Source of the DNA: Antedon mediterranea
Taxonomy: Eukaryota > Animalia > Echinodermata
NCBI RefSeq assembly: GCF_964355755.1
Contig: NC_092672.1
Coordinates: forward strand, 2,294,001 to 2,358,000
Length of the DNA stretch: 64,000 bases
Reading direction: 5' to 3'
Position 1 is the stretch's first letter. The number at the start of each line of letters is the position of its first letter. The notes beneath the pieces were generated by a model. That model did no database searches and was not told the origin of the DNA. It was given only the letters and a program-made list of their open reading frames with translations. The position numbers and the translations under genes were made by a program. Below, one piece after another: positions 1,205 to 57,900 of this stretch.

Positions 1205-2707
1205 TTATTTATTTATTTATTTATATATTTCCTTTTATTGCATCAAGCAGTGATGAAGTTGACATAAATATAATAGTAAATATGTAAACACATAGTATAA
1301 CACAGTCCAAACAAGAAATACTAAAATATATCATAGTCCACAAATCAGTCTTTCAATGGCCATCATAGTACATCCAGTAACACAAACCAATAGAGGTTCA
1401 CAATTTGCTTATCATAACTCAGTTACTGATCATTCACCAATTATTGAAAACTCCGTGGAAAGTAATGAAGTTTTTTGTGCGTTGTGTCCGGACTTTGGGG
1501 AGGGTGAACGATCTAACGCGCCGGAGCTGATGGTTGTGTGTGGGAGGTTTAGGTAAGAGAGAGTGTAATATATGATCTTCTTTTTTCATTTTATCAAAGA
1601 ATTTTCTTGACAACTTCTCGCGGCGTTCAGATAGAGTGATGATGTTAAGGTATCTGCGGGTATCAGCATACGAGGTACCATCGGGGCATATTATGTTACA
1701 CGCTCTTCTTTGGACATGTTCGATTTGGTCAGATTGTGCTTTGGATAAACTCGGGGACCAAACAGCACAGGCATATTCGAGAACTGGTCGTATCACTGCT
1801 TGATAGTATCGGAGCAGTTCCAGTCTATCTAGGCCAGACCTCTTGAGTTGCTTAAGAAAAAACAACCTTGGTACAACGCGCTTAGTTAAACAGTCAACAT
1901 GCGTCTGCCACGACAATTTACGGTCAAGATTGACACCTAGTAACTTTGCATGCACAACACACTTGACTTCAGATCCATTCACAGTGATTGGGTCAAACTC
2001 AGTTGGTGTTCTCTTACATGTAATGCGCAGTTCAACCGATTTTTTCTCATTCAGTTTCATACCATTTTCTTCGCACCATTTAAATATACTGTTCATACTA
2101 TCTTGAATTTTGCACTCGGAGTTCTTATTATATCTTTGGTAAAAGGTGGTATCGTCCATATATTTCATAAGCGGCAGATCGACCTGGAGGTCATCAATGA
2201 AGGCAACAAACAGGATTGGACCAAGCCATGATCCTTGTGGGATTCCTCCGTTTGGTTTTAGCCACGGTGAGAAGACATTCTTCAATTTCACTCTGTGTTT
2301 TCTATCTGCAAGAAAAGCTTGAATCCATGCTACAAGAACTTCGTCGATACCTATGTTCTTTAACTTTCTAATTAAAATGTGGTGGTCAATCATATCATAC
2401 GCTTTGCTAAAATCCAATAGGAGAGCACGTACTTCCTCACCATCATCAGTGGCTTGGTACCAGTGATGCAATGATGAGATGAGGGCGTCAGTTGTTGAGA
2501 CCCCCTTTGAGCTACCAAATTGGTTGTTTGATAGTTTGTCTTTCAGCTGGTCCCAAACAAGACTACCAATTAAGCTCTCTACAATTTTTGCAGCTACAGA
2601 TATTAACGAAATGGGTCGGAGATCGGTTTGGACACAGCGAGGGGGGTTTATTTTCGGTATTGGCACAATATTTCCAGTCATCCGGGATATACGATTAGCA
2701 ACAAGCT
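1205..2707 (-). mobile_element. 5'-truncated non-LTR retrotransposon (CR1/L2-group LINE), RT domain and C-terminus, inside EFHD2 intron 1
   Basis: ORF 1434-2681 has RT motifs RPISL, LLDFSKAYD, GIPQGSWLGP, YMDD, LLGVNLD and the tail YACAVWSP..IEHVQRRA. Upstream IPDDWK (about 2690) is frameshifted. (TAAA)n-type tail near 1205-1225. No endonuclease domain. Confidence 0.93.
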
Positions 2708-4330
2708 TGGTGGTATAAACGCCCTGAGGCTAGTGGAAGTTGTGGGTTCGAGTCCTTCTAAAATTAATGTACTGATCATTATTCCATGTTTAGTACGATT
2801 GCATCAGAGTAGGGTCATCCATTGAACTTAATATATAATACAATGTTTACAGTTGTATTGAATACTGTAACAATGGTATTCACAAAAGACACTATTCTAA
2901 ATATTTTATTGTGCAAGAACCACTGTACCAGCATAAATTGGAATTGACTATTTATTCAATTGAGTTAGTAGTACTAGTAGTAGGCTACTAACAGGATGCT
3001 GAGCTCTGGAGATCAAAGGGTTTACCTGTGGTTGTGACACGATCAGTTCCACGCCCCTTAACAGACAAGCGTGCGCCGCGGAGGATATGTACATAGTACA
3101 GTACTGTTGGTATTTGTAGCAGCCAAACATAAGATCAAAGGACTGTTACGAGTTCCTATCTTGGCAAGGCGAACTCAGAACTTGATTTTAAGTTTATTCT
3201 CAAATGACAACTCTTGGGATATAACAAGGAAACACAATCACAGAAAAACAACAAATACATGCTGAAATAATAATCCCAGGAATAAGGTTTTTTTTTCTAT
3301 TAACCAAAAAATCACTCAATCATAAAGGAATGAGGAAGTACCTTTATTTAATAAAAGGGAAAAATAAAGACAAGTACAATGGAGTTGGATACTGTTATCT
3401 TTTTAATGTCAATACCAAAAGTTTAATCTTGAACATGATATATTAAATACCCATTGAATACTTGGTGAAACCACAAGATAAGTATATAACATGATAAGGG
3501 ACTTTCCCTATGTTTTTGTTACATAAATTGTCACTATCACAGATCACAATTTATCATTCAATTAATTTTATATATTATTAATGGGAGTACTAGTACATTG
3601 TTTTTGTATATATTTTTTGTTATACTCAATAATCCATGCAACAATTTAAATAAATCATAAGGGGGTTTCCCCACGATATTTTAACATAAAATGTTGCAAC
3701 AGTGTCTATGATTGATTCTGAAGGTAAATTACGCATAATAAATAAATAAATTGAGATCAGACCAAGTGTGTTTTTCCAATATTTTATTTTTGTGTAAAAA
3801 TTACAATGAAGGCTTGTCCCCTCTATGAAAAATTCATGGAAAAATTATAAATTAAAACTAAAAATCTATTAAACTATGGACCTAATTTACTAATTTATAG
3901 GTCCATGATTAAACAAAAAAATAAATTAAATAAAATTTAATTTAAAAAATGAAATAGTTTCATAAATTAGGCCTATATCTAGGGACTGAAAATGTTATGC
4001 TCCAGTAATCGCTTTTGTCCTTTTTATTTAGTATTAATTAAGCATACTTCAGTACACTGACAGTAACATGTGTTGCTAATGCATAGAGATTTAGTTTAAT
4101 AATAGATTAATACTTACAATTAAATGGTCATAGTAATAATATTATCTACAAAAAGGTAGTTTACTTGCAATAATAGAAAAACGTGTAGGCCCGATTGCAG
4201 GATAGTTTTTTTAAATCTTTCATTTGCATTTCTAATTCCGACATTTATCGATTTATATTCAAGAGTTGACATTCCGGGTATCACTATTACTCAAGCTACC
4301 AAAGTACAGAGCGTAAAACAAACCACCTAC

Positions 4331-26500: not shown

Positions 26501-29500
26501 ACTTTCTCATGTAGCGCCATCATGTCTGTGACAGGTGATGCACGAGTGTTTGGGCTGCCGCTAAGATTGGTCTGCTGCGACGTGAGGACGGTCCGTGCTC
26601 CAGATGAACTCACCCAACCACTGGTCACTGGTTTTAAATAGGAAAAAAAAAATTTATAAAAAAAAAGTTATATAATAAGTAAGGATATATGGTACTGTAG
26701 TATAGGTGCTTTCCATACATAGTTTGACAGTCAGGTTCAATTCCAACATTACTCAATAAGTTATAGTGTAATCTTAATAAAAATATAGATAAGGGTAGAA
26801 CAACAGTACTGTAGCGAATATTTAGTTACAAATTTCAACAAAGCAATACTTACCTCTTCTAGGTGGAAGGGGACTATTTGTAGGGCTAGCCTGTGTCACT
26901 GAGCTAACACCCCCTGCACTACCACGTCGACTGCCTGCACTCGAGGGCCTAGGCCTTGGCGGACGTGGGGCCATGTTAACAGTAATAGGTTGACTAGATG
27001 GCTGCCATGGTGTGGACGACCAAGCCGATGATGTCACAGAAGGCGCGGCTGGTACGGAATATGGAACAGTGATCGCAGGTAACTGAGATTGAGAAGTCGT
27101 CCTCGGGTCAACACCGTTGTAGGAACTTAAATGCGGGAAGGACTCTTGCGCTGATATTGGTATCTCATGGTTTATTGTCGTTAACGGTGAATTCCAAGCA
27201 GCACGCTGCTGAACGGGAGGGTACGTCACCTGTGGAGCGTTCTCGACGTCAAGTTGGTATGGTATGCCACAATAACCAAACCGAATAATGTCTCCAGGGG
27301 CTAGACGTACAGCAGCGTTCTGGACGCGGCATTCGTTGACGTACGTACCATGTGCGGTATTGAGATCTTGAAGGACGTAGCACATCTCTTGTTCACTGTA
27401 CTCGATGAGTGCATGCTGAGCTTCTATAGCAGGTGACTAGAAAAAAAAATATTGGTAAATTGTTTCACATACAATTTGCAAAGGGAAACCATTTATAACA
27501 TCCAGGAAACAAAATAGGATGTTAGAATTTCATAGGTGAACTCCTAACAGAAAATAAACTAATTTTTCACTTTTTAAAAGATAAATCGGCCTTACTCTAG
27601 TCTAAGGCATCTCATTTTATAGTCTGTGCAGTACAGTACTGTAGTATGTGAAATATACCCCTGGCCTATCTCAAAATATACTTTATTAGTTCTCAATACA
27701 GTACTTTAATTTTAAGTTTAAAAATACTTATCATTGAATTATACTTATCAATAAACGTCAACATTTATTCAGAAGTTTTGAATAAAGACTTGAAAACACT
27801 TCGATATAATATTTCAATGTCTTTAAATTATTTTGTATAGTACTGTACCGGTAATAATTCTACTATGGTTATATTATATTGTCAATTTTACTACTAAATG
27901 TTTATTTCAGATTTGTTTTTTTACTTTGTTAATAATATTACTGTACTGAATGACAAAACACAAAAACATTTGTGTGGCAAATTAAAATTCAAGAATCAAA
28001 TTCCTAATGCATACAATTATTTTGTCTGCATCAAGTCAAATTAATATTTGAGCTGTTGTTATTAAAAAATATCCAACATCAATTTTAATACAGCCAGTAT
28101 TACTGTTTGCTGCTATGGTAACCATACACAACAAATCCCAGGTAAATGAAGCAAATAAAATGATGTCATATTTAATATTAGATAACACTTGAATGGTTGA
28201 ATACAATGGAGCAGAGAGAGATAAAGGTTAGACTTAATGGGTGACTTTCAACCAACCAAAGAAGAAGCATCACAAAAAATCAATATTTACTGTCTGTCAT
28301 TCTGTCAAAGGATTTACGGTAAATTCAAATATTTGTTTTCTAACTGTTTAGTGAAAGTCTGCTTTTCAAAAATCAAAATGTTATATCCAATCATAATGCA
28401 GGATGAACATGCTCAACGTCAGGGTTCAGCATTCTGTGTCTATTGGCTACTAGTACTAGAGTCACAGCCCCTTTCAATTTAACTGGTATTAAACTGATTC
28501 ATCAAAACAATAAATGTAAAACATATGTATTGTCCTCCAAAAACATGAAAATTTAAGATTAATTAAATCAAACTTTGATGTTATTTTGTAATTTTAATCA
28601 AGTTAATCACTTCCATAGAAAAAAAAAAGAAAAAAAATTATGTTTTCACTTATAAAATGACAAAATAAATGGTTCAATTCAACCAAAAACCCATTGGCTG
28701 GCACTGGCAGCCAATTTAACCATTTTTTGCTTTATAAATTAATGTTTTTCAGGTAAATACCATTTTTTTCGATGCAATTTTTGGTCAAAGTGGATAACTA
28801 TTATGTTACATTAAAATGGCATATTCAGCAAAAATTTAGTTAAGAATTATTTTTTTCAGGGGGACAATAATACAATACAATACATCTTTAATAAATTAGA
28901 AGTATTACAAACAAAGTGAATTTTTTTCATGAAACCCAATAAATATTAATATCAATTTACGGTAATAAACTGTTTCATAATGCAGTATTAATCCCACCTC
29001 TATACGTAATTTTGTTTTAATAGAAAACGGAAAATGGTGATTTTGAAAACAATTTTAAAAATGCTACAATTTTTTTTTACATTTTTGTGGGAAAGAGGTT
29101 GGTTTAGGGTGAAACAAAAAACAATTGGCAAATTGCGCAACATTTAAAAAGAATTCATGCCTTTTATTGTACAGTAGCAAACTATGTGTTGCTATTTAAT
29201 TGCAATGTAGTTAAGTTAGGTAATTCACTGGTGCTAACATATTACTGTAGATGTTACTCTGTAATATGTACAATGTAATAATAAAAGGTAGTTTTGCCAG
29301 AAGTCTGGAAAAGTTACATTTTAATGGTTTGTTTTCAACATTGTATTATGGAGTGAGTGCAGAATCTTTTTCTTACTCCTGGTTATTATTTTTTGGTGAC
29401 CGATTATTATATTTTTATTACTAAGTTTTTTTTCCTCCAAAAATGAATTTCTATATTTAATTTGTGACTTACAGGAATGACAATGTCACACTTTTCTCGT

Positions 29501-33075: not shown

Positions 33076-35153
33076 GGATCCAGTCAAGTCGCCCCATCGC
33101 AAAGTCGCCCCATACAAAGTCGCCCAATACAAAGTCGCCCCATCGCAAAGTCGCCCCAAAACAAAGTCGCCCGGGCACAGTCGCCCCATCTCAAAGTCGC
33201 CCCATTACAAAGTCGCCCCATCGCAAATTCGCCCCATCGCAAAGTCGCCCAAACGCAAAGTCGCCCCATCGCAAAGTCGCCCACGGTTTTAATCATATCG
33301 GTTGCGTTTGATATCGATTGCGTTGTTACTTTGGTCGCGCTAAATGTCGTATACATTAATGTTTATCCTATTATATACATAATATGTGTTTTAATTTGTA
33401 TTTTACAGGTTTTAATGGAGTGATGTGCTTTTTAAAAATCATTAAAAAAATAGTCCCTTGTTTGAAAGTTCTAAAAAGATTATCCCTGATTTATAGTTTC
33501 GAAAATGTTAATTTAATATGATTTTAAAATTAGTTACCAGAGCCACAATTACAATTTCTTCAACCTACGCGATACCAGCTCATTTTTTAGGATAATATAA
33601 TAAATGTATAAATGTGTAGTAGGCCTTCGTATAGATTTACAGTAGTTAAAACAATAACAGTGTTGTAAGACAATAAGTGTTATAGGCTACTTATTGATCA
33701 TTTTGCATTTATTGACAAGTTATGTGTCTTAATTTTATAATGACTTTTCAAAATGAAGAAAAAAAAAGGGGATTTCATTGCCGATATGATTGTTTTACAT
33801 GCAGGTATTAGTAAAATTAAAACGCGACATTTTGACCATGGAAAAACCATCGTACAGTATCGTGTGCGTGTTTGTTAAAAAGGGGAATCCCCGACGGTCA
33901 GCAGAAAGACGTAGCAGCTGTGAGGAAACAGATACCAGAAGGCGCAGCTCCGATTGGATTCAGAGAATGTTTCAGATGGCGAGTGGCCTTTTATTCAACA
34001 GCACAATGATCATTTTACTGAAGAAATTCTTTTCAATCCTTTTGGTTATAGAACATTCTAATTATAATGCCTAATAAATATCCTCATATCGGGTGTTTAT
34101 TTAATTTTAAATTAAACAAGACAGTGAAGAGGCACGGAATAATACGTACACGGACGTACGACAAATACACACACGCACGTTATCATTTACGACATTATAG
34201 TGGTGATATGATGCAATTTTATAATGGATATAATGATGGTATTGCCTTTCCAGGAGTCTTACAATCAATGTTCACTGTAATACTATGTATATAATAGTAA
34301 ACTGAATGTTTATAAATAAATTGTTTTACGTAATTTGTTGCATATAAAATAAAAGATACAGACGTAGCCTATACGTTTCCTATAAAATATTTCACATTTA
34401 AATAATTATGTACTGTTAAATGACATTATGCTGGATAATACTATATCTCAAACTATGTTTACAAATTTTCATTTTTTAAGCCACACATCTTTCTCATCAT
34501 ACTGATCTGTAAAATAAAAACAAAAATCAATTATTAATATAGGCCTAAATAATAATAATAAATATTCATCGACCAAAGTAAAAATCGTATAACATCATTT
34601 TATCGCGACCGATTTCGAACGCGACTGATATCATGTGGTAATGATTGAAATGTGGTATTATTATTATCATCGTAAAACTCCGGCGGGGTTTCCCCATCTT
34701 CAGATGGTGCGTTGTAGAGTGCGACAACGGCAACGGCGGAGTAATTACGGGGGTTTCCCTCTGGTAAGCTAGCACGAGTGCGACCGCGGAGTGATTAGTC
34801 GGGGGCTTCCTCTCTGATGATATGGGGGTGCGTGCCGATCGTGTGACCTGAGACTACATGGCGGGGCTTCCCCTTTTATGCCTACACGTTCAGTGTTATT
34901 TTGTGTATCATTGCAACAACTTGTAAACTATTTTTTAACGTTTTGGGGCGAGTTTGCAATAGGGCGACTTTGTGATGGGGCGACTTTGCGATGGAGCGAC
35001 TTTGCGTTGGGGCGACTTTGCGATGGGGCGACTTTGCGATAGGGCGACTGTGTCGGGGCGACTTTGTTTTGGGGCGACTTTGCAATGGGGCGACTGTGTA
35101 AGGGGCGACTTTGTATGGGGCGACTTTGCGATGGGGCGACTTGACTAGCATCC
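33076..35153. mobile_element. Non-autonomous foldback-type Mutator (MULE)-like element, about 2.1 kb
   Basis: Termini GGATCCAGTCAAGTCG / CGACTTGACTAGCATCC. Long TIRs are built from 15-16-bp AAAGTCGCCCCATCGC units (33084-33282 and 34944-35144). 9-bp TSD TTTTATAGG / TTTTATAGC. No transposase. Confidence 0.85.
34685..34872 (+). promoter_or_regulatory. Cluster of four NF-kB-type sites
   Basis: GGGGTTTCCC at 34685 and 34750, GGGGGCTTCC at 34801, GGGGCTTCCC at 34863; all fit GGGRNNYYCC. A fifth, GGGGAATCCC, is at 33882. Confidence 0.5.
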
Positions 35154-35971: not shown

Positions 35972-38900
35972 ATGGCAACACCAGGTAAAACAATAAATGG
36001 TCTTTTTTTTGTATTTTAAAATAAAATTTTATGACAAAAAAGATCGACATTTCGGAACCATCATAGAACCATTCTCAAGAACAAAATGAGTAAAATTAAC
36101 AAAGTACAAAGCACCAAAGGGTGACAAGAAATACTATAAACAATTAATAACTAATAATCCTAAAAAGATAAGCTCCTCCTCTCGTTAATAGTTAAATCTT
36201 TTGCTTTGATTGAGTAATTTTGTTTTGTGACGTCGATCTTTTTTGTCATTAAATTTTATTTTAAAGTTATATGTAAATGTCTCTTAAATTCATTTTTTTG
36301 TATTGCATCGAGAACAGTTTAACACAAAGAATATTTTCAGATGATCAGTTTTAGCACTCGTTATTTGTGATTATGATTTTCAATACAGTTTTTTTTTTAT
36401 TAATGTATTTATATTGTATTTTGTCATCATTTATTGTCATTATTTTGTCAGACAAAACTGAATGTGGTGAAGACCTTAAAGAAAGGTTCCATACTTTAAA
36501 AGATAAACTTAGCAAACACTTTGTGGGTCGCCATTTTAAGTGGTTGAGATTCTGCCTGCATGGATACATACCATTAGGAGACATTGACCGTGATAATGTT
36601 ACAGCAATGAGTTTATTTAATGAACTTTACCGAACCGGTAACATCACACCGCATAAAGTCAGGCTTTTGCTGGACATAGCTAATGTGACAGGTTTCAGTG
36701 AAGCAGTAGATCAGATAAACCAGTATATGGAAGATAACAATGTTGATGATGACTCGACGCTTTCAACGTCTCGTAAACAACTATTCCAGACCTTGAGAGA
36801 AATTGGACAAGATGAGTTGAAGAATGTTATTCATAATTACAATGAACTGAATAAATTTGAATTCACAGATATATGGGATGCCGTATTCATATTAGATAAA
36901 GGAAAGCTTCTAGGTACATCTTCACTAATTACCAGGTTTACCGATTGTTTTGGAAAATCTGCACAGGATCTAGGTATACGTATTTCATTTTCTTTAATTT
37001 GAAATACAAAGTATCGGTTACAAATAGTTGTAGTAGCCTATCCTCCTTATTTGTGACCCTTTTGGTATTCACAATCACTACAAACACAAATATTCAGTGC
37101 TTTGAATGCTGATTGTGTATGCATATTATTAGATTGAATATCGATATTAAATTCAATGTTTTCACTACGTAACAATTATTGTATATTTGTATTTTTTCTT
37201 GTTTGTTATTTAACAGAGGAAGTGCCGAAAAGTAGTAGTATTGACACAAGAATGCAAATAAAGGATTTACCGAGAAGTAGTAGTCGTGACACAAGGATGC
37301 AAACAGAGAAAGTACCGAGAAGTAGTAGGAGTGACACAAGAATGCAAACAGAGGAAGGTAACATAAGTTATACTGTTATGTAGGACATTAGAGTCAAAAT
37401 GATTGTATTGGTGAAATCAAACTAGAGAAATTAGTAATAGATTGCTAAATTAAATGAAATTAGTGATTTGAAATGTAATTATGGAAAGCCAAAAAAACCC
37501 AAAATAATTCAATTCACCAATGCATTTTTTAAACTCAAACCATAATCGTGCAGTTCAACAAAATCTCAATAACATCCGGTGACGTCCTAGGCAACAAAAG
37601 GTAAATTAAAAGTTAAGGAGGCCAGAGTACGCATACAATAACCCTTCTTCCATTCCTTATGCTATAATTATGTTTTATCATCAGTATTCTCTAAAGTTAA
37701 AACAATATGCATACCTGTAAGGAAATACAGGTATCTCACTGACTTAAGTGTGATATTGGTGAATACGGCCACTGGGCCTTATTTCATCCTATTTCGGATT
37801 TGTGATAAATTTATTTTTCGGTTTGCTGCCCTCTGTTGATTTTATTATTTTGCTTCCCTTCTGATTTATCAAAAAGTGTGTTTGTCGCCCTCTATCAACC
37901 AACCGTTACAAGATAAGGAGTGAGCCTCCGTATTATAGTCCGGTATAACTAATAATAATTACTTGACTTACTTTAACTGAGTACAGTAATAGCAAATTAT
38001 TATTACATTAGAATTCCCATACAAATATCTAGGCCTGCAAAAAGAACAAACAACTAATTAATAACATTTTTAAATGTTATTAAAACTGCTTTATATAAAA
38101 GATAAATTAAGATCAACAGTTTAATAATTTAAAAATACATGTATTATAAAATATTATTATGTATACATTTCTGAACCTCTTTTTTTACATTTAGAAAAGA
38201 TTGAAGAATATCTGCTGCTAACACAAAAGGAACACTGCAGGCAGGCCAGGATATTTACACCAGAAACAATGCGTGGTAGATACACAGTTGACATTTCACA
38301 GATGTTTACCGATATGGAACTACTGAAAGAACGTGAAAACAATAAAGGAAGCAAACCAACAACATTGGAAGAAGTGGTAGATGTTATACAATCCACACCT
38401 GGATGTAAAGCCCTCATAGAAGGGGAGGGAGGTATTGGAAAAACTACCATATTAAGGCATTTATCGTACAACTGGTCTGATCAATCAATTAAATTATTTG
38501 AAGGTAAAATTGTGTTTCTTTTAAGTTTAAGAGATTTAAAAAAAGATGACGACATATCTGATCTGATTGTACAGCAACTGACAGATTTCAATTTAGACAC
38601 AGATCTCCCAGAAGATCCACAGTTAATTAAGGAATTTATAAATAAACATAACAATAACTTTGTGTTACTACTAGATGGATTAGATGAATTAAGATTTGAT
38701 AATCAAAGCGTAATTAGTCTTTTCAGAAAAAAAAGGTTTAAACAAAGTACTGTAATACTTAATTCAAGACCGGAAAACATAGATGAATTTATAAAAGAGT
38801 GTAACGTACACATAAGAGTTAGTGGATTCAACAAAGAGAGCATCGGAAAGTATATTGAAAAATACTTTAAGCATTTTGAAAATCAACAATTGGGAGAATC

Positions 38901-40467
38901 CCTTAAAGAAGAGTTGGATATTGACACTTCTCGGGCTGGAAAAAAACATCCAGAAGCATATTCAATGTGCAAAAACCCAATGCTACTTCTTTCGATCTGT
39001 ATGCTATGGGAGGATAATCAAAATCTTCCTAGTGATAATACAGCTCTTTTCAAACAACTATTTTGTAGTATTTTAAATCAGTTTAACAAAATAGAAAATT
39101 GTCAAAAGATTACTAAATTTGAAAACATTCCAGCGGAATATGTAAATTCTATGATTTTGTTAGGAAAATGTATGTATGCTAACTTGAAAGTAAATAAACT
39201 TTCAATAACTAAACAAGATTTGACTGATAAACATTCGAACACAAATATAGCTGACCTAGCCCTAAAACTTGGATTTGTTTACGAAGAAGCACCACTTTCA
39301 AAATCTAATTGTGAAAGAATATTCATGCCTCCTCACAAATTGATTGTAGAATCATTGGTGGGATTTTACTTGTCTAAATTGTTTGAAAGTGAAAATATAA
39401 AGGATGACTCAGACTTGAGACAATTACTAATACCATTGGGTTATGATGAATTGGGGGTAATAAAAAAGGAGTATTTCAAAGTTGCTGGACAGTTTGCACT
39501 TGGTTTTCTTGATGCTGCAACTGTTGGTAAATATTTAAAGCAATGGCTCACAAAACATTTCCCATTAAGATTAAGAATGAGTAGAATTCGGAAGTTTTTT
39601 TTCGGCATTAAGATTACAGACAAGGAAAGATTTATTGCGAACATTTTAGACATTCAACCTGCACCTTATGCACCTTATGGTGTTAGGATTCAGAATCTAT
39701 CAGGTGACGTCATCAATCACTTGGGTACAGAATGTTCTCTCAAACAAGTTCAATTAGCATTAAGTCATCTCTATATCTCTAGTAATAACCTTCACAACCT
39801 TGATGTTAATTCATTGTCTTCATTACTCATTATGTGTCCTAAGCTGTGGAAGCTTGACATGATTGATTGCAATCTATCAGGTGAAGTAATTAATTACTTT
39901 CTTACAGAATGTTCTCTCAAACAAGTTCAATTAGCATCTCTCGATATCTCTTTTAATAACCTTCACAACATTGATGTTAATTCATTGTCTTCATTTCTCA
40001 TTATGTGTCCTAAGCTGGAGTACCTTGACATGAGGGATTGCAATCTATCAGGTGACGTCATCAATCACTTGGGTACAGAATGTTTTCTCAAACAAGTTCA
40101 ATTAGCATTACGTCATCTCAATATCTCTGGTAATAACCTTCACAACCTTCATGTTAATTCAATGTCTTCATTACTCATTATGTGTCCTAAGCTGACGTGG
40201 CTTGACATGAGTGATTGCAATCTATCAGCTGACGTCATCAATCACTTGGGTACAGAATGTTCTCTCAAACAAGTTCAATTAGCATTACCTGGTCTCAGTA
40301 TCTCTTATAATAACCTTCACAACATTGATGTTAATTCATTGTCTTCATTACTCATTATGTGTCCTAAGCTGAGGTGGCTTGACATGATGGATTGCAATCT
40401 ATCAGGTGAAGTAATCAATTACTTGACCGAAGAGTGTTCAAACAGAGGCATCACGTTTTTAAAATAA
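35972..40467 (+). CDS. NLR-1: tandem DED-like + Ser-rich linker + NACHT + LRR (about 982 aa)
   Basis: Exons 35972-35984 (MATP), 36452-36973, 37217-37357 and 38195-40467; all introns phase 1, GT-AG. Walker A GEGGIGKT, Walker B LLLDGLDE, CKNPMLL, PHKLIVE; four 57-59-aa paired-LRR modules. Candidate upstream UTR exon ends at 35779 (GTAAGT). Confidence 0.9.
36452..36973 (+). CDS. NLR-1 effector exon: two death-effector-domain-like units
   Basis: Pattern LRFCLHGYIP..IDRDNVTAMSLFNELYRTGNIT..VRLLLDIA, then SRKQLFQTLREIGQDELKNVI..IWDAVFILDK, fits the DED helical spacing. Assigned by eye. Confidence 0.65.
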
Positions 40468-43453
40468 TTTTACAATCCTATTATACTGTATACAATTTAT
40501 ATATAAATATATATAATCATCACCTTTATAAACTCGCAGAACGTAAGTGTCAATTTGGAAATTCCCGTTAGAATTGCGTCTGTAATCTAAAAATGTCATG
40601 CAATCTATATTAAATTTTTAAACAAATCCGGAATAGATTATTTCCAAATTTATAATTTTGTCTTTTTAAGGAATAATTTCAAAGCAACATTTTATTTTCT
40701 CAAAAGTGTGTTCCTCTCCTCCCCCCCTGCGTCGAATACGCGTACTTCATCCATATTCATCATCTTCTTCCTAGACGCGCGCGTACAATCAAAGAGAGCT
40801 AGCTAGCTCTCTCTGCATATCTCTGCATGCTACATACGTGTGTACAGGATATTATACGTATAAATACTATATAAGTTAGGCAACAATTGTTGCTAAGTGA
40901 TATTATTTTTATTTAATTATAACATGATACTGTATGGTAGGAATTGACAATTTATATTCTGTGTGTTTGTATTGGTATAATTCAGTTTTTATTTTCTACA
41001 CAGCTCAAATGAATTATTTACCGATATTCTTCTTGAGATAATATTTGATTTGTGGTGAATGTGCAATGTATAAAGTCAGCATAACTGCACTGCCAGTCAT
41101 TCATATGTTTTAGTGATGTTGGTTTTACTTAGTTTAACATTTTATCCAGTAGATTTATTTGTTCTGAAGGGTCTTAAGACTACAGACAATTACTTGTCTC
41201 TGTAAAATCCATGTAATGTATGTATTTATATTGCTGAATGAATGCGAATGAACTTGTAGTAGATTTATTTGATAATCTATTTTTAATTTGTCCATGTTTA
41301 GGGAAAAATACATGTTTAATAACCCTTGTGGTATATGGTATTGGCAATTTGATATAATTCATGTCTGATAATAGACGAACATTTTGTACATTTCTTGTTT
41401 GTACAATTCATTTGAATTTGGGCAATTTGTACGATGTATGTATATAATTATATATTTTGATAATGTAATTAATTAATGTAATTATTGTTGATAATATAAA
41501 TATAGACGCTAAGTACTAAATGTGCCAAACTGTGCATGGCAAATTTCATATTGCGTTAACTTTTACTTGATGATGACAAATAAAAGTAATGTTAGTTACG
41601 TTGTGTATCTTTTCTTAGCTTTTGTGTGATGTCTACCGTATTGAAAATAATTCATGTGATTATAAGCAGATCCAAGGACACATGATCTACCCTCGACACG
41701 CTTTTTACCGTCTAAACACGCCTTAAAATGGTCGCAATGAAGTCAATCTAAAACAAAACAGCAATTAGGCTCTGCTCCCATATACATGATACATTCTGGA
41801 TCTGGACCTTTGTGATACAGTGTGTATGCCTACAGTATCTGCGCCTGGTGATATCAGTATAGCTATAGGCCTACAGTATTTATCTGCGGCCTGGTGACAG
41901 TATTTATCACAAATGGGTGCAGGGCCGGCCTAAAAATGGTAAAATGAAGTGCTGAGCTTAACATGATGTCCTAGGCCCTCCCCGCCTCCTACGCCTGATT
42001 TCAATGAATCTAATTAAAGAAATCATTGTCGTATTAACATTACTCTATCACAAATCAAATACGGTCGGTACATATTTTCACAAAACATTATTTTTATTGA
42101 TGTTATATCACGATGCAACATTTGATGACGGGAAATAATTGATGTTTCATATTGAGAGCAAATCGATTTTATAAATGAATAGCTCATTATTACTGTACTG
42201 TTACTGAGATTACCATAAAGAGGCCAACAGCAAAACAATATACATAATTATTAAAGCATTTTGTTTACCCATAGAATTTGAATATTACAAGAATAAAACA
42301 TGATGATTATAATTAAATAATGAATACGATAGTTATGAAGACAAATTTACATGGTGCTATGTTGAAGTTACTGAGCGATGATCAATGACGTATATTTTGT
42401 ACAGCAATGATGATGCAATGGTACTAGATACATTTGATAACAGTGTAAGTTTTATAAACAAATAAAAGGAAAAAATGCAAAAATATATACATTATTATTA
42501 TGTTTGTATTTACAAATTAATAAACAAAAGTATAAACTTATTAAACCTTAAGCCTCCTAAACCAGCAGCTGTGCTATAAATAATTACAAAGGCTGTTTGC
42601 TCATGGAGGTATCAACAAAGCAATACCACCTTCATAATACCATGTTGTAATATAATGTTTACCAAAAAGTGCTAAATATAATATTAGAAAACTCTAAAAG
42701 ATTCAAAATCTATCCACCACCTAATCAAACTGGAAGTTAAAAAAGAAATTTTATTTTTTAATAATTGCACAAATAAAGGAATGCGTTGCACTGAATGTTT
42801 CTTAATGAATAAATTGTATGTAACGCAATAAGTTATCGAACTAAGGCCAATGTGAATAGTGAAGCGTAACGGTGCTTCCTGAACGTTTAGGTTCGAATCT
42901 CCAGTTGCTGTTTTGATTGCTTAACAGTTGCATTTGTTAATGCATCAACCTATAAAGAAAATTTTCTTTAAAACCCAAGAACAGCAATACATACCATTTT
43001 CCGATATTCTTCAGATAATAATATATGATTTGTGGTGAATGTGCAATGTATAAAGTCAGCATAACTGCAATGCCATAGTCATTCATATGTTTTAGTGATA
43101 TTGGTTTTACTTAGTTTAACATTTTATCCAGTAGATTTATTTGTTCTGAAGGGTCTTACGACTACAGACAATTACTTGTCTCTGTAAAATCCCTGTAATG
43201 TAAGTATTTATATTGCTGAATGAATGCGAATGAACTTGTAGTAGATTTATTTGATAATCTATTTTAAATTTGTCCATGTTTTTGAAAAAATACATGTTTA
43301 ATAACCCAGGTGGTATGACAATGGTAATTTGGTATAATTCATGTCTGATAATAGACGAACATTTTTTTATATTTCTTGTTTGTACAATTCATTTGAATGT
43401 GGGAAACAGCAATACATACCAATCTCAAAATATGATGGCCAAAAAGAAAGGCA

Positions 43454-49790: not shown

Positions 49791-52700
49791 ATGGTAGTTG
49801 CTTATGGTATCACTGTAGGCCTAAGGTTCAACATTTAGCTCCGCAAAAGATAGTCAATGCATAGAGTCATTATGTTCACAAACAGTACTAAAACTTCAAA
49901 TAAACATCATCGGATCAAACACATCTCCGTAATGACACTTTACATCGTATGCCCCTTTATCAATAATACCCAGAGAGGGTTATAGAGTTTGGTATCAGAA
50001 TCATGTAATTTGATGTTCTGTAAAAGTTTTTCTCGATCCATAATCCCGATATCATACGGTTACTATGATGATTGTGCATCAATGTCAAAAACATGAAATA
50101 TTTTTATAAAAAAACTGTATTTATGTAGTGATAGACATTAGGCCATTCATCTTGAATGTTACATTATTCAGCATATCGTTGTTTTTTTAGAAATAGATTT
50201 TAATGTGGACTTAGTGAACTTTTCAGAATGGTATGATAAAAACAACCTCGTAAGACAGCTAAAGGTTTTATACCACGATTTAATTTCAGTAGCAGACATA
50301 GACAAAGCCAACACAACGATAGATCTACTGGATGCATTGAGAAAAACAGGACGTTTAAGCCGAGGCAATCTGGAGTTACTTTATGAAACGATAAAAATAA
50401 CACAAACGTTTGGAGCTATCAAAGTTTTTCAACAATCTTTCTTCGAAGTTCAAGAAATACAAATTATTAATTTCACCCCATATCGACACTGGATTGCAGA
50501 TTTTGGAAACGAACTACGAAAGGCTGCTGTTAAGAAAATTGATGCACTCTTCAACAATCCTTTAAAAAATTATGAAGACTCGTGGAGTATGATTATAGAC
50601 TTGGAACAAAGACAAATACTTTGTGAAGAAAGAAAAGAAGGGTTTATTAACATTCTTAACAGAATTGGACTGGCATCAACGATGAAATGCCTGGCACAAG
50701 GTATGTAACAGGAACGTGTTAGCAAACAAATAATTAATTGGAGAAGATTATAAAAATAGCCTATAATATGTGTAAAACATTCACTACGTAACAATTATTG
50801 TATATTTGTATTTTTTCTTGTTTGTTATTTAACAGAGGAAGTGCCGAGAAGTAGTAGTAGTGACACAAGAATGCAAACAGAGGAAGGTAACTATAGTTAT
50901 AATGTTATGTAGGACATTAGAGTCAAAATTATTTTATTGGTGAAATCAAACTAGAGAAATTAGTAATAGATTGATAAATTAAATGAAATAAAATTAGTGA
51001 TTTGAAATGTAATTATGGAAAGCGAAATAAACCCAAAATAATTCAATTTACCAATTCATTTTTTAAACTCAAACCATAATGTTGTACAGTTCAACCAAAT
51101 CTCAATTCACTTTTAACATCCGGTGACGTCCTAGGCAACAAAAGGTAAATTAAATGTTAAGGAGGCAAACTACGCATACAATAACCCTTCTTCTATTCCT
51201 TATGTTATAATAATGTTTTATCATCAGTATTCTTTAGAGTTAAAATAATATGCATACCTGTAAGGAAATACAGGTATCTCACTTATGTGATTGGTGAATA
51301 CGGCCACTGGGGCTTATTTCATCCTATTTCGGATTTGTGATAAATTTATTTTTCGGTTTGCTGCCCTCTGTTGGTCATGTTTTTAAAAATTATGCTTCTC
51401 TTCTTATCTGATTTATCCGTGGATTTATCAAAATTTGTGTTTGTCAACCTAAATTTACAAATACGTTACGGTACAAGATAAGGAGTGAGCCTCCGTATAT
51501 CAGAAAATAGTCTGGTATAACTAATAATAATTACTTGACTTACTTTAACTGAGTACAGTAATAGCAAATTATTATTACATTCGAATTCCAAACAATTATC
51601 TAGGCCTGCAAAAAGAACAAACAACTAATTAATAACATTTTTAAAACTGCTTTATATAAAAGATAAATTAAGATCAACAGTTTAATAATTTAAAAATACA
51701 TGTATTATAAAATATTATTATGTATACATTTCTGAACCTCTTTTTTTACATTTAGAAAAGATTGAAGAATATCTGCTGCTAACACAAAAGGAAAACTGCA
51801 GGCAGGCCAGGATATTTACACCAGAAACAATGCGTGGTAGATACACAGTTGACATTTCACAGATGTTTACCGATATGGAACTACTGAAAGAACGTGAAAA
51901 CAATAAAGGAAGCAAACCAACAACATTGGAAGAAGTGGTAGATGTTATACAATCCACACCTGGATGTAAAGCCCTCATAGAAGGGGAGGGAGGTATTGGA
52001 AAAACTACCATATTAAGGCATTTATCGTACAACTGGTCTGATCAATCAATTAAATTATTTGAAGGTAAAATTGTGTTTCTTTTAAGTTTAAGAGATTTAA
52101 AAAAAGATGACGACATATCTGATCTGATTGTACAGCAACTGACAGATTTCAATTTAGACACAGATCTCCCAGAAGATCCACAGTTAATTAAGGCATTTAT
52201 AAATAAACATGACAATAGCGTTGTGTTACTACTAGATGGATTAGATGAATTAAGATTTGATAATCAAAGCGTAATTAGTCTTTTCAGAAAAAAAAGGTTT
52301 AAACAAAGTACTGTAATACTTACTTCAAGACCGGAAAACATAGATGAATTTATAAAAGAGTGTGACGTACACATAAGAGTTAGTGGATTCAACAAAGAGA
52401 GCATTGGAAAGTATATTGAAAAATACTTTAAGCATTTTGAAAATCAACAATTGGGAGAATCCCTTAAAGAAGAGTTGGATATTGACACTTTTTGGCCTGG
52501 GGAAAAACATCCAGAAGCATATTCAATGTGCAAAAATCCAATGCTACTTCTTTCGATCTGTATGCTATGGGAAGATAATCAAAGTCTTCCTAGTGATAAT
52601 ACTGATCTTTTCAAAGAATTATTTCGTAGTATTTTAAATCAATTTAACAAACAAAAACAATGTGACAAAATTTTAAAATTTGAAGACACCCCATCAAAAT

Positions 52701-53851
52701 ATGTACACGCTATGATTTTGTTAGGCAAATGTATGTATATAAACTTAAAACGAAATCAACTTTCAATAAAAATAACAGATTTGATTGATACACATTCCAC
52801 AAGAGATATGATTGACATGGCCCTAAAACTTGGATTTGTTTACGAAGAAGCACCACTTTCAAAATCTAATTGTGAAAGAATATTTATGCCTCCTCACAAA
52901 TTGATTGTAGAATCATTGGTGGGATTTTACATGTCTAAATTATTGGAAAGTGAAAATATAAAAGATGACTCAGACGTGAGACAATTACTTATACCATTGG
53001 GTTATAATGAATTGGATGTAATAAAAAGCGAGTATTTCAAAGTTGCGAGAAAGTTTGCACTTGGTTTCCTTGATGCTGCAACAGCTGGTTATTATTTAAA
53101 GCAATGGCTCACAAAACATTTCCCATTAAGAATGAGTAGTAGAATTCGGAAGTTTTTTTTCGGCATTAAGATTACATACAAGGAAAGATTTATTGCGAAC
53201 ATTTTAGACATTGAACCTGACCCTTATGGACGTGTTAGTGTTAGGATTCAGAATGTATCAGGTGATGTATTTAATAACTTTCTTACAGAATGTTCTCTCA
53301 AACAAGTTCAATTAGCATTACGTTATCTCTTTATCTCTGGTAATAACTTTCACAACATTGATGTTAATTCATTGCCTTCATTACTCATTATGTGTCCTAA
53401 GCTGTGGTGGCTTGAAATGAGGGATTGCAATCTATCAGGTGACGTCATCAATTACCTGGGTACAGAATGTTCTCTCAAACAAGTTCAATTAGCATTAGAT
53501 ATTCTCGATATCTCTAATAATAACCTTCACAACATTGATGGTAATTCATTGTCTTCATTTCTCATTATGTGTCCTAAGCTGAGGCACCTTGTCATGATTA
53601 ATTGCAATCTATCAGGTGACGTCATCAATCACTTGGTTACAGAATGTTCTCTCAAACAAGTTCAATTACCATTACGTACTCTCCGTATCTCTCATAATAA
53701 CCTTCACAGCATTAATGTTAATTCAATGTCTTCATTACTCATTATGTGTCCTAAGCTGTGGGTGCTTGACATGAGTGATTGCAATCTATCAGATGAAGTA
53801 ATCAATTACTTGACCGAAGAACACTATTCAAACAGAGCCATCCAATTTTAA
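49791..53851 (+). CDS. NLR-2: different tandem DED-like exon + short linker + NACHT + LRR (about 890 aa)
   Basis: Exons 50191-50700, 50836-50886 and 51756-53851 are phase 1, GT-AG. The start exon 49791-49806 (MVVAY, donor GTATCA) is tentative. Same NACHT motifs as NLR-1; three 59-aa LRR modules. Confidence 0.87.
50191..50700 (+). CDS. NLR-2 effector exon: two DED-like units
   Basis: QLKVLYHDLIS..IDKANTTIDLLDALRKTGRLSRGNLELLYETI, then YRHWIADFGNELRKAAVKKI..DSWSMIIDLEQRQIL. Acceptor TTTTTTTAG at 50190, donor GTATGT at 50701. Confidence 0.65.
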
Positions 53852-55767: not shown

Positions 55768-57145
55768 TATGAAGACAAATGTACATGGTGCTATGTTGAA
55801 GTTACTGAGCGATGATCAATGACGTATGAAGACAAATGTACATGGTGCTATGTTGAAGTTACTGCTGAGCGATGATCAATGACGTATAAAGACAAATGTA
55901 CATGGTGCTATGTTGAAGTTACTGAGCGATGATCAATGACGTATGAAGACAAATGTACATGGTGCTATGTTAAAGTTACTGAGCGATGATCAATGACGTA
56001 TGAAGACAAATGTACATGGTGCTATGTTGAAGTTACTGAGCGATGATCAATGACGTATGAAGACAAATGTACATGGTGCTATGTTGAAGTTACTGAGCGA
56101 TGATCAATGACGTATGAAGACAAATGTAAATGGTGCTATGTTGAAGTTACTGAGCGATGATCAACGACGTATAAAGACAAATGTACATGGTGCTATGTTG
56201 AAGTTACTGAGCGATGATCAATGACGTATGAAGACAAATGTACATGGTGCTATGTTGAAGTTACTGAGCGATGATCAATGACGTATGAAGACAAATGTAC
56301 ATGGTGCTATGTTGAAGTTACTGAGCGATGATCAACGACGTATGAAGACAAATGTACATGGTGCTATGTTAAAGTTACTGAGCGATGATCAATGACGTAT
56401 GAAGACAAATGTACATGGTGCTATGTTGAAGTTAGTGAGCGATGATCAATGACGTATGGAAACAAATGTACATGGTGCTATGTTGAAGTTACTGAGCGAT
56501 GATCAATGACGTATGAAGACAAATGTACATGGTGCTATGTTGAAGTTACTGAGCGATGATCAATGACGTATGAAGACAAATGTACATGGTGCTATGTTAA
56601 AATTACTGAGCGATGATCAACGACGTATGAAGACAAATGTACATGGTGCTATGTTGAAGTTACTGAGCGATGATCAATGACGTATGAAGACAAATTAATG
56701 TACATGGTGCTATGTTAAAGTTACTGAGCGATGATCAATGACGTATAAAGACAAATGTACATGGTGCTATGTTGAAGTTACTGAGCGATGATCGATGACG
56801 TATAAAGACAAATGTACATGGTGCTATGTTGAAGTTACTGAGCGATGATCGATGACGTATAAAGACAAATGTACATGGTGCTATGTTGAAGTTACTGAGC
56901 GATGATCAATGACGTATGAAGACAAATGTACATGGTGCTATGTTGAAGTTACTGCTGAGCGATGATCAATGACGTATAAAGACAAATGTACATGGTGCTA
57001 TGTTGAAGTTACTGAGCGATGATCAACGACGTATAAAGACAAATTTACATGGTGCTATGTTGAAGTTACTGAGCGATGATCAATGACGTATAAAGACAAA
57101 TTTACATGGTGCTATGTTAAAGTTACTGAGCGATGATCAATGACG
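55768..57145. repeat. 57-bp tandem satellite, 24 units
   Basis: Unit TATGAAGACAAATGTACATGGTGCTATGTTGAAGTTACTGAGCGATGATCAATGACG. 1378 bp minus three small insertions (10 bp) = 24 x 57. No spacers. Confidence 0.95.
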
Positions 57146-57563
57146 TATAGTTTGTACAGCAATGATGATGCATGATACTAGATACATTTGATGATGATAA
57201 CAGTGTAAGGAAAATGCAAAAATATAAAACACTATCCTGTTTGCATTTACAAATTAATAAATTAAAGTGTAAACTTATTAAACCTTACGCCTCCTAAACC
57301 AGCACAGCTGTGTTATAAATAAGTACAAAGGCTGTTTGCTCATGCAGGTATCAACAAAGCAGTACCACCTATGTATTTTCATGTGTTTACCACAAAGTGC
57401 TAATTATAATATTAGAAAAACTCTAAAAGACTCAACATCTATCCACCACCTAATCAAACTGGAAGTTAAAAAAGAAATGTTATTTAATAATTGCACAAAT
57501 AAAGGAATGCGTTGCACTGAATGTTTCTTAATGAATAAATTGTATGTAACGCAATAAGTTATC

Positions 57564-57900
57564 CGAGTGCTTGCCATGAATGATTGCAATCTATCAGGTG
57601 ATATATAATCTATCATGCGCGCAAAGACTGTTCAAAGAGAAATGATTTTACAATCCTACTAATAGTGCATGTATATATAATTCTATATAAACAGCACATT
57701 TTTAAAAACTCGCAGCACGTAAGTGTAAATTTGAAAATTCTCGTTAGAATTGCATCTATAATCTATAAACTGCATGCTTTAAATAATAGATATTCAAACA
57801 AATCGGGTAGACCTACAGTATAATAGTAATATAATCAATATCATAATTTTTTAAGCAAAATTTTACTTTCTCAACAGTTTATTCCTACCTATAGCCTACA
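57564..57900 (+). pseudogene. Orphan remnant of a third NLR: last LRR plus 3' flank
   Basis: GTGCTTGCCATGAATGATTGCAATCTATCAGGTGA...TGTTCAAAGAGA...TTTTACAATCCTA...AAACTCGCAGCACGTAAGTGT aligns with 40375-40590 and 53762-53980; frameshifted. Confidence 0.75.

Follow-up and report, generated by a model that had tools for sequence, protein, structure and literature searches.

Near-identical leucine-rich repeat modules with hypervariable codons on the predicted binding face of crinoid NACHT-LRR genes: a probable product of repeat exchange and positive selection

Two genes in a 64,000-nucleotide stretch of the genome of the crinoid Antedon mediterranea (contig NC_092672.1; the whole stretch that was analysed, hereafter the window) carry arrays of leucine-rich repeats (LRRs) whose framework is almost the same in every unit, while a few codons on the predicted ligand-binding face differ between units and, in one of the two strands, always end in T. 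This raises the question of whether such a receptor is diversified by positive selection together with unequal crossover or gene conversion, which was the main inference of a first-pass annotation of this DNA, or by a mutational process that targets particular codons, which was offered there as a speculative alternative.

The two NACHT-LRR genes, NLR-1 and NLR-2, form a tandem duplicate with the copies approximately 13.5 kb apart. Their parts are as follows; features given here or below without other evidence in brackets were read from the sequence.

36355..36973, plus strand: NLR-1 N-terminal death-fold (DED-like) exon (Pfam DED E=0.002, under the curated cut-off; GT donor after 36973); its 5' end is not fixed, 36355 being a stop-to-stop start
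37217..37357, plus strand: NLR-1 linker exon, in which a 45-bp unit is repeated about three times (AG/GT in the sequence; TRF period 45, 3.2 copies; open frame)
38195..40467, plus strand: NLR-1 exon with NACHT domain, helical region and LRRs (acceptor; ORF open to the stop; Pfam NACHT E=1.5e-21)
40396..40467, plus strand: NLR-1 C-terminal cap, a partial module
50142..50700, plus strand: NLR-2 DED exon, 5' end not fixed (Pfam DED E=5.6e-08; donor after 50700)
50836..50886, plus strand: NLR-2 linker exon with one 45-bp unit (matches model P0005)
51756..53851, plus strand: NLR-2 exon with NACHT domain, helical region and LRRs (ORF; NACHT E=3.8e-23)
53783..53851, plus strand: NLR-2 C-terminal cap
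57561..57807, plus strand: decayed 3' end of a third family member, with the last B strand, the start of the cap and the 3' flank (73% to 40377-40631; translation runs into a stop)

Both appear to be crinoid DED-NACHT-LRR NLR genes. The NACHT domain was matched by Pfam PF05729 at 77 and 83 bits (cut-off 26.7), and a C-terminal LRR solenoid was indicated by Pfam LRR_1 matches over the cut-off and by a predicted model with repeating strand-helix units; the DED matches, at 33.4 and 18.7 bits, were both under the curated cut-off of 35.9. All modules share one exon with the NACHT domain in both genes, and Pfam found no B30.2 domain after the LRR region. AG/GT signals and paralog models suggest that the DED exon would be spliced to the NACHT exon. 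NLR-2 is 100% identical over 698 aa to P0005 (XP_071945096.1, an Antedon mediterranea RefSeq protein), and three paralogs (P0011, P0013 and P0022) have N-termini with 92-96% identity to its DED exon. The DED exon of NLR-1 shows 31% identity over 49 aa to that of NLR-2 and 37% over 171 aa to paralog P0008. When the predicted AlphaFold model of NLR-1 (mean pLDDT 78.7) was searched with Foldseek, the best matches were NOD2 (E 3e-22) and NLRC4. The 45-bp linker unit, present about three times in NLR-1 and once in NLR-2, is Ser/Arg-rich. Several other elements were also observed in the window.

26822-27436, minus strand: exon with an FHA domain (E=2.9e-11)
33082-35146: inverted arms, each approximately 200 bp long and composed of a 16-bp unit, with 1.7 kb between them (a non-autonomous DNA transposon is a possible reading)
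55768-57148, downstream of NLR-2: array of 24 copies of a 57-bp unit with 95% matches (each of the six frames has stops in the portion that was translated); the unit also occurs singly near 42330

Each full-length LRR module has 59 codons and comprises two LRRs, with strand A (LxxLxISxN) and strand B (LxxLxMxxC). The variable codons were numbered A1-A4 (codons 24, 25, 27 and 30) and B1-B4 (codons 52, 53, 55 and 57). The seven modules that had been proposed were confirmed at exactly their proposed starts, and TRF reported a period of 177 with 4.2 and 3.0 copies in the two arrays.

39694..39870, plus strand: module 1a, two LRRs, 59 codons
39871..40041, plus strand: module 1b, 171 bp, with a 6-bp deletion
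40042..40218, plus strand: module 1c (A1-A4 codons at 40111, 40114, 40120 and 40129)
40219..40395, plus strand: module 1d (A1-A4 at 40288, 40291, 40297 and 40306; B1-B4 at 40372, 40375, 40381 and 40387)
53252..53428, plus strand: module 2a (first-module type)
53429..53605, plus strand: module 2b
53606..53782, plus strand: module 2c

The strand-A codons listed in the first-pass annotation proved letter-exact, with 27 of 27 ending in T and one adjoining the 6-bp deletion of the module at 39871. As it had also reported, all seven window modules have NNG at the first x of strand B. It did not mention that other third bases of strand B change within the window (G/C at B2, C/A at B3 and T/G at B4). 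Pairwise DNA identity of the modules is 82.5-93.8%, that of the framework alone 90.2-98.7% (near-invariant rather than invariant), and protein identity 69.5-84.7%. More than half of all pairwise module differences (220/404, 54%) sit in the eight variable codons, which make up 24 of 177 nt (8/59 codons). Within codons 12-59, the third base is fixed in 39 of 40 framework codons, and the number of synonymous differences across the seven modules is zero. The short beta-strands of LRRs line the concave face of the solenoid. In the AlphaFold model, A2/A3 and B2/B3 fall within LRR beta-strands 524-526 and 552-554, and the variable codons would thus lie on the predicted concave binding face.

A large excess of replacement changes was found at the variable codons. 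By NG86 counts on 21 module pairs, which are non-independent and were treated by a counting method rather than a likelihood site model, the strand-A codons have pN 0.647 and pS 0, five strand-B codons pN 0.387 and pS 0.054, and framework codons 12-59 pN 0.04 and pS 0, the latter with 11 distinct replacements and no silent change. Because dS is zero, omega is unbounded; the counts show a large replacement excess at the strand-A codons and give no omega value. Divergence between the duplicated non-coding flanks is approximately 3% (136 of 4422 sites). It is likely that amino-acid changes at the eight binding-face codons have been fixed by diversifying selection, and the counts together with the predicted model place a few hypervariable codons with replacement excess on what would be an interaction surface, a feature of NLRs with highly internally conserved (HIC) repeats.

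Evidence of exchange was observed both among modules and among paralogs. Four gametes occur at 7 of 28 pairs of informative framework sites, recurrent mutation being an alternative for single pairs. At the 5' end of module 1b, a cap-type start is joined to a first-module-type continuation, and this module is likely the product of an unequal crossover. Residues 1-225 of NLR-1 match NLR-2/P0022 at 22-25 of every 25 positions, and residues 276-350 match P0011 at 24-25 of 25, versus 14-19 for NLR-2. NLR-1 is therefore a mosaic, with a DED exon unlike that of NLR-2. At the DNA level, the first 500 bp of the exon are >99% identical between the two genes, and the block 39020-39250, which matches P0011, differs between them at 21-23% of bases. 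The sequence common to both genes starts in the intron, near 37160 and 50780, downstream of the differing DED exons; the differing exons (36355-36973 versus 50142-50700) and this intronic start suggest effector-exon swapping. The four-gamete pairs, the chimeric module and the mosaic NLR-1 point to concerted evolution, with exchange within and between paralogs, and, combined with the replacement excess, they support the main inference, namely that homogenised repeats have been subject to positive selection and to unequal crossover or gene conversion.

The same organization was found beyond the window. All 21 matches of the first protein search were crinoid (20 from Antedon and one from Anneissia), and a search of shorter proteins gave nothing at E 0.001 or better. 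Paralogs carry one to six modules each, and many of them lie on one chromosome; the 59-residue period is also present in Anneissia proteins, with 11-13 matched strand-A motifs. The scaffold closest to that of the window was absent from 144 further representative proteins scanned, and the homogenised subfamily therefore looks young and lineage-restricted. Consecutive 59-aa modules reach up to 92% identity in P0040 and P0031, so homogenisation appears to recur in the family. Near-identical repeated LRR blocks were also observed in the Clavelina NACHT protein P0036, which may be another animal example of high internal conservation.

Comparison with known systems helps to place these genes. Ribonuclease-inhibitor-type LRRs of vertebrate NOD2, NLRC4 and NLRP proteins share the same overall fold with the crinoid protein (Foldseek, predicted model) at 15% identity. 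Asn-type and Cys-type LRRs alternate in the two-repeat unit of these vertebrate receptors, as they do in the crinoid module, and the vertebrate units are mutually diverged rather than homogenised. In Podospora, HNWD repeats are described as 80-100% identical, exchanged within and between genes, and variable at four hypervariable surface codons (PMC12222747; PMC4986451). The crinoid genes resemble Podospora HNWD/NWD genes (het-d, het-e) and fungal HIC NLRs in combining NACHT with near-identical repeats (here 82.5-93.8% at the DNA level), in having few hypervariable codons on an interaction surface (here a predicted one), and in exchanging repeats within and between paralogs. They differ in that the repeats are LRRs instead of WD40, ANK or TPR, in the probable DED-NACHT-LRR architecture of an animal receptor, and in having about eight variable codons per two-LRR unit. 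Thus, the crinoid genes work like HNWD and are not HNWD: the sensor is LRR rather than WD40, and the N-terminus is DED-like rather than HET. With regard to the HIC threshold given in PMC4986451 (T-REKS PSIM 0.85 over 100 aa or more), mean identity to the own majority, an approximation of PSIM, was borderline (0.87 for NLR-1, 0.83 for NLR-2 and 0.85 pooled).

Among other lineages, the Ectocarpus ROCO LRR and NB-ARC-TPR genes are similar in that their LRRs are under diversifying selection and shuffled as units, and somatic diversification has been proposed for them; there, however, each repeat is its own exon, whereas here the modules and NACHT share one (PMC3341825). The zebrafish NLR-B30.2 genes are likewise a large animal NLR family with gene conversion, N-terminal exon swapping and positive selection, but their LRRs are described as 'not particularly variable', the domain under selection being B30.2 (PMC4852459), while in the crinoid the LRR is hypervariable and B30.2 is missing.

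Taken together, repeat exchange and positive selection acting on near-identical modules probably explain the hypervariable NLR sensor. Unequal crossover and gene conversion likely keep the two-LRR 177-bp modules near-identical, and about eight codons of the predicted concave face likely owe their amino-acid changes to diversifying selection. The T-ending pattern would be a by-product: the founder codons would have ended in T, almost no silent change would survive homogenisation, the third base would carry only about 10% of the replacement mutations that start from NNT codons, and K/E/Q/M/W may in any case be disfavoured by LRR strands at A3 and A4. What we infer from these data is how the modules recombine, what selects them (microbial ligands, in an immune role) and that the changes accumulate in the germline rather than somatically. 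The same recombination and selection could also be driven by a conspecific ligand, in allorecognition or through a guarded host protein as in fungal HET-E. Mechanistically, the nearest parallel is that of het-d/het-e, which recognise allelic variants of HET-C (PMC12222747); however, animal NLRs are described as microbe sensors (PMC4986451), and the many paralogs on one chromosome do not resemble one multi-allelic locus, which makes this reading unlikely.

The T-ending codons themselves required a larger sample. Visual grouping of the paralogs gave a young subfamily of 12 proteins encoded elsewhere than in the window (isoforms and P0005 dropped) and 9 older proteins, and a pattern search of the young set recovered 31 strand-A and 31 strand-B motifs, missing a few modules, such as 1b. 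Glu, which has no NNT codon, was found at A1 in 8 of the 31 young paralog modules, and Asp, which has no NNG codon, at B1 in 2 of 31; on the other hand, K/E/Q/M/W were found at A2, A3 or A4 in none of the 31, while K, E and W are common on the adjoining strand B. Contigs from four public runs were also placed on module 1c, and differences at 1% of depth or more were considered, the contigs being non-independent and divergent ones liable to clipping. The third base of A1 was A in 1, 1, 4 and 4 contigs of the four runs (3.0, 2.1, 18.8 and 16.9% of depth, where shares are contig depth rather than copy number), and that of A2 was A in 1, 1, 0 and 1 contigs and G in 0, 0, 1 and 1. Paired equal-depth gap rows at A1-A2 can be read as GAG TCT, CGA TCT, GTC AGG and GTC GAT, of which the first two agree with ES and RS residues in paralogs, and a loose contig end at the same place reads GAA TGC. 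At A3 and A4 of module 1c, no change of the third base was detected at 1% of depth or more in any of the four runs. Among the differences listed for module 1d, up to 13 contigs per run vary at the third base of B2 and up to 34 at that of B4.

The all-NNT/all-NNG rule of the first-pass annotation is thus contradicted by the larger module sets, with Glu at A1, Asp at B1 and third-base A at A1 and A2. In view of the protein and contig data, third-base invariance does not extend to A1, A2 or strand B but persists at A3 and A4, where T was kept in all four runs; all-NNT is true of the seven window modules and is not a rule of the family.

Whether the T-ending excess goes beyond what selection gives was examined by simulation. 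T occupies 34% of the gene's third positions, and 27/27 T has P ~2e-13 against its own codon usage; this naive null (0.337^27) ignores common ancestry and was rejected, because the modules share one recent ancestor. With a mutation spectrum taken from the flanks, the share of replacement mutations via base 3 from the 27 observed codons is 0.102. In related LRR motifs, K/E/Q/M/W occur at A3 in 1/41, 0/36, 7/129 and 31/561 and at A4 in 0/41, 3/36, 9/129 and 84/561, so that they are avoided by related LRRs at A3 and mostly at A4; in distant LRRs, the five residues most often found at A2 include H, Y, S and T. Under selection-only simulation, in which founder codons and trees were assumed and the pattern had been chosen after seeing the data, the probability of 27/27 T was 0.004-0.038 with all residues equal and 0.038-0.14 with K/E/Q/M/W disfavoured at A3/A4. 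Generic LRR residue preferences, tried as a cause of 27/27, lowered its probability instead of raising it (0.0009-0.017 with distant-LRR preferences, which favour K/E at A1; some cells had <15 accepted runs). Within-codon conversion was likewise rejected as a full explanation, as it moved the selection-only probability only from 0.003 to 0.015 and the excess remained.

In residue-blind models, the lack of K/E/Q/M/W at A2-A4 in 38 modules has P 0.0002-0.015 and that at A2 alone P 0.03-0.24; these residues occur at A2 in 0/38 modules here versus 51/77 other crinoid modules. A1 breaks as the models predict with a larger sample. Across the simulations the probability of 27/27 ranges over 0.0009-0.14, and a small excess is unexplained because selection-only simulations do not make 27/27 likely. 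This remaining excess is read as subfamily-specific residue preference plus shared ancestry, and a weak codon-level bias within it is possible.

A germline or somatic (coelomocyte) process, template-directed and similar to diversity-generating retroelements (DGRs) or repair-driven, could instead rewrite the first two bases of the binding-face codons, A2-A4 in particular, and leave base 3 untouched, with selection afterwards. The 27/27 T of the window, the absence of third-base rows at A3/A4 at 1% of depth or more in four runs, the absence of K/E/Q/M/W at A2-A4 in 38 modules and the P <0.05 of most simulated selection-only nulls are in its favour. A DGR needs a template repeat, a reverse transcriptase (RT) and adenine-specific change, and the crinoid modules resemble such systems in having variable codons in a fixed scaffold and a kept third base reminiscent of AAY-derived codons (PMC4372165). 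They are unlike a DGR in that the window has neither a template repeat nor a DGR-type RT, variation is not adenine-centred, and third bases change (at A1, A2, B1, B2, B3 and B4). Only the seven coding modules matched in a template search of both strands of the 64-kb window, which holds no extra copy of the scaffold on either strand, a remote template being possible. The only RT found there is LINE-like and 37 kb away.

1434-2729, minus strand: non-LTR retrotransposon-type RT frame, 431 aa (best solved relatives LINE-1 ORF2p and R2)

It was rejected as a DGR part on account of these relatives and of a group II model score of 45.8 bits versus a cut-off of 300. The earlier statement that the window shows no DGR-type RT or template is thereby upheld, and the DGR-like alternative itself finds no part of such a system in the window. 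Moreover, A amounts to 0-2.4% of depth at base 1 of A1, is unlisted at base 1 of A4 (at 1% of depth or more), and does not occur among the varying third bases that B2 and B4 show within the window. The founder-like codon dominates (C at A1 base 1, 52-85% of depth; G at A4 base 1, 64-91%), and the variants are its single-step neighbours rather than an even or A-rich spread. The residues at each A site form one single-step codon network, and multi-nucleotide mutation was rejected as unneeded because these residues connect by single steps. Related LRRs also avoid the same residues at A3/A4. On all these observations, a targeted process of this kind is decidedly improbable; if true, it would amount to a programmed repertoire for an invertebrate cytosolic receptor.

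Drift at unconstrained or mutation-prone surface sites, with no positive selection, might be considered because the surface x positions of LRRs accept many residues, as distant LRR motifs show. However, the strand-A codons have pN 0.65 versus pS 0 in the same 144 bp, with flank divergence of about 3%, and neutral drift cannot exceed the silent rate, which leaves this reading close to refuted. Least credible of all is an assembly artefact of collapsed or mis-joined repeats: near-identical tandem repeats are difficult for short-read assembly (PMC12222747), but both genes have open frames, the same codons vary in contigs of five runs that come from three studies, and paralog proteins carry the same pattern.

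With repeat exchange and positive selection as the preferred explanation, the mode of diversification is one already known. A 2026 survey that included LRRs reported HIC NLRs from bacteria and plants as well as from animals (PMC13449251). The locus looked exceptional on account of its codon rule, which is not absolute. In the literature consulted, mostly freely available papers, no description of this crinoid NLR family and no paper on third-base fixation in such repeats was found. At the DNA level, the locus clearly illustrates HNWD-type diversification, as known from fungi, in an animal NACHT-LRR gene whose LRR is itself hypervariable. This hypervariability suggests direct, fast-changing ligand recognition by echinoderm NLRs, and, given a fixed scaffold with about eight variable residues, specificity would be testable by module swaps.
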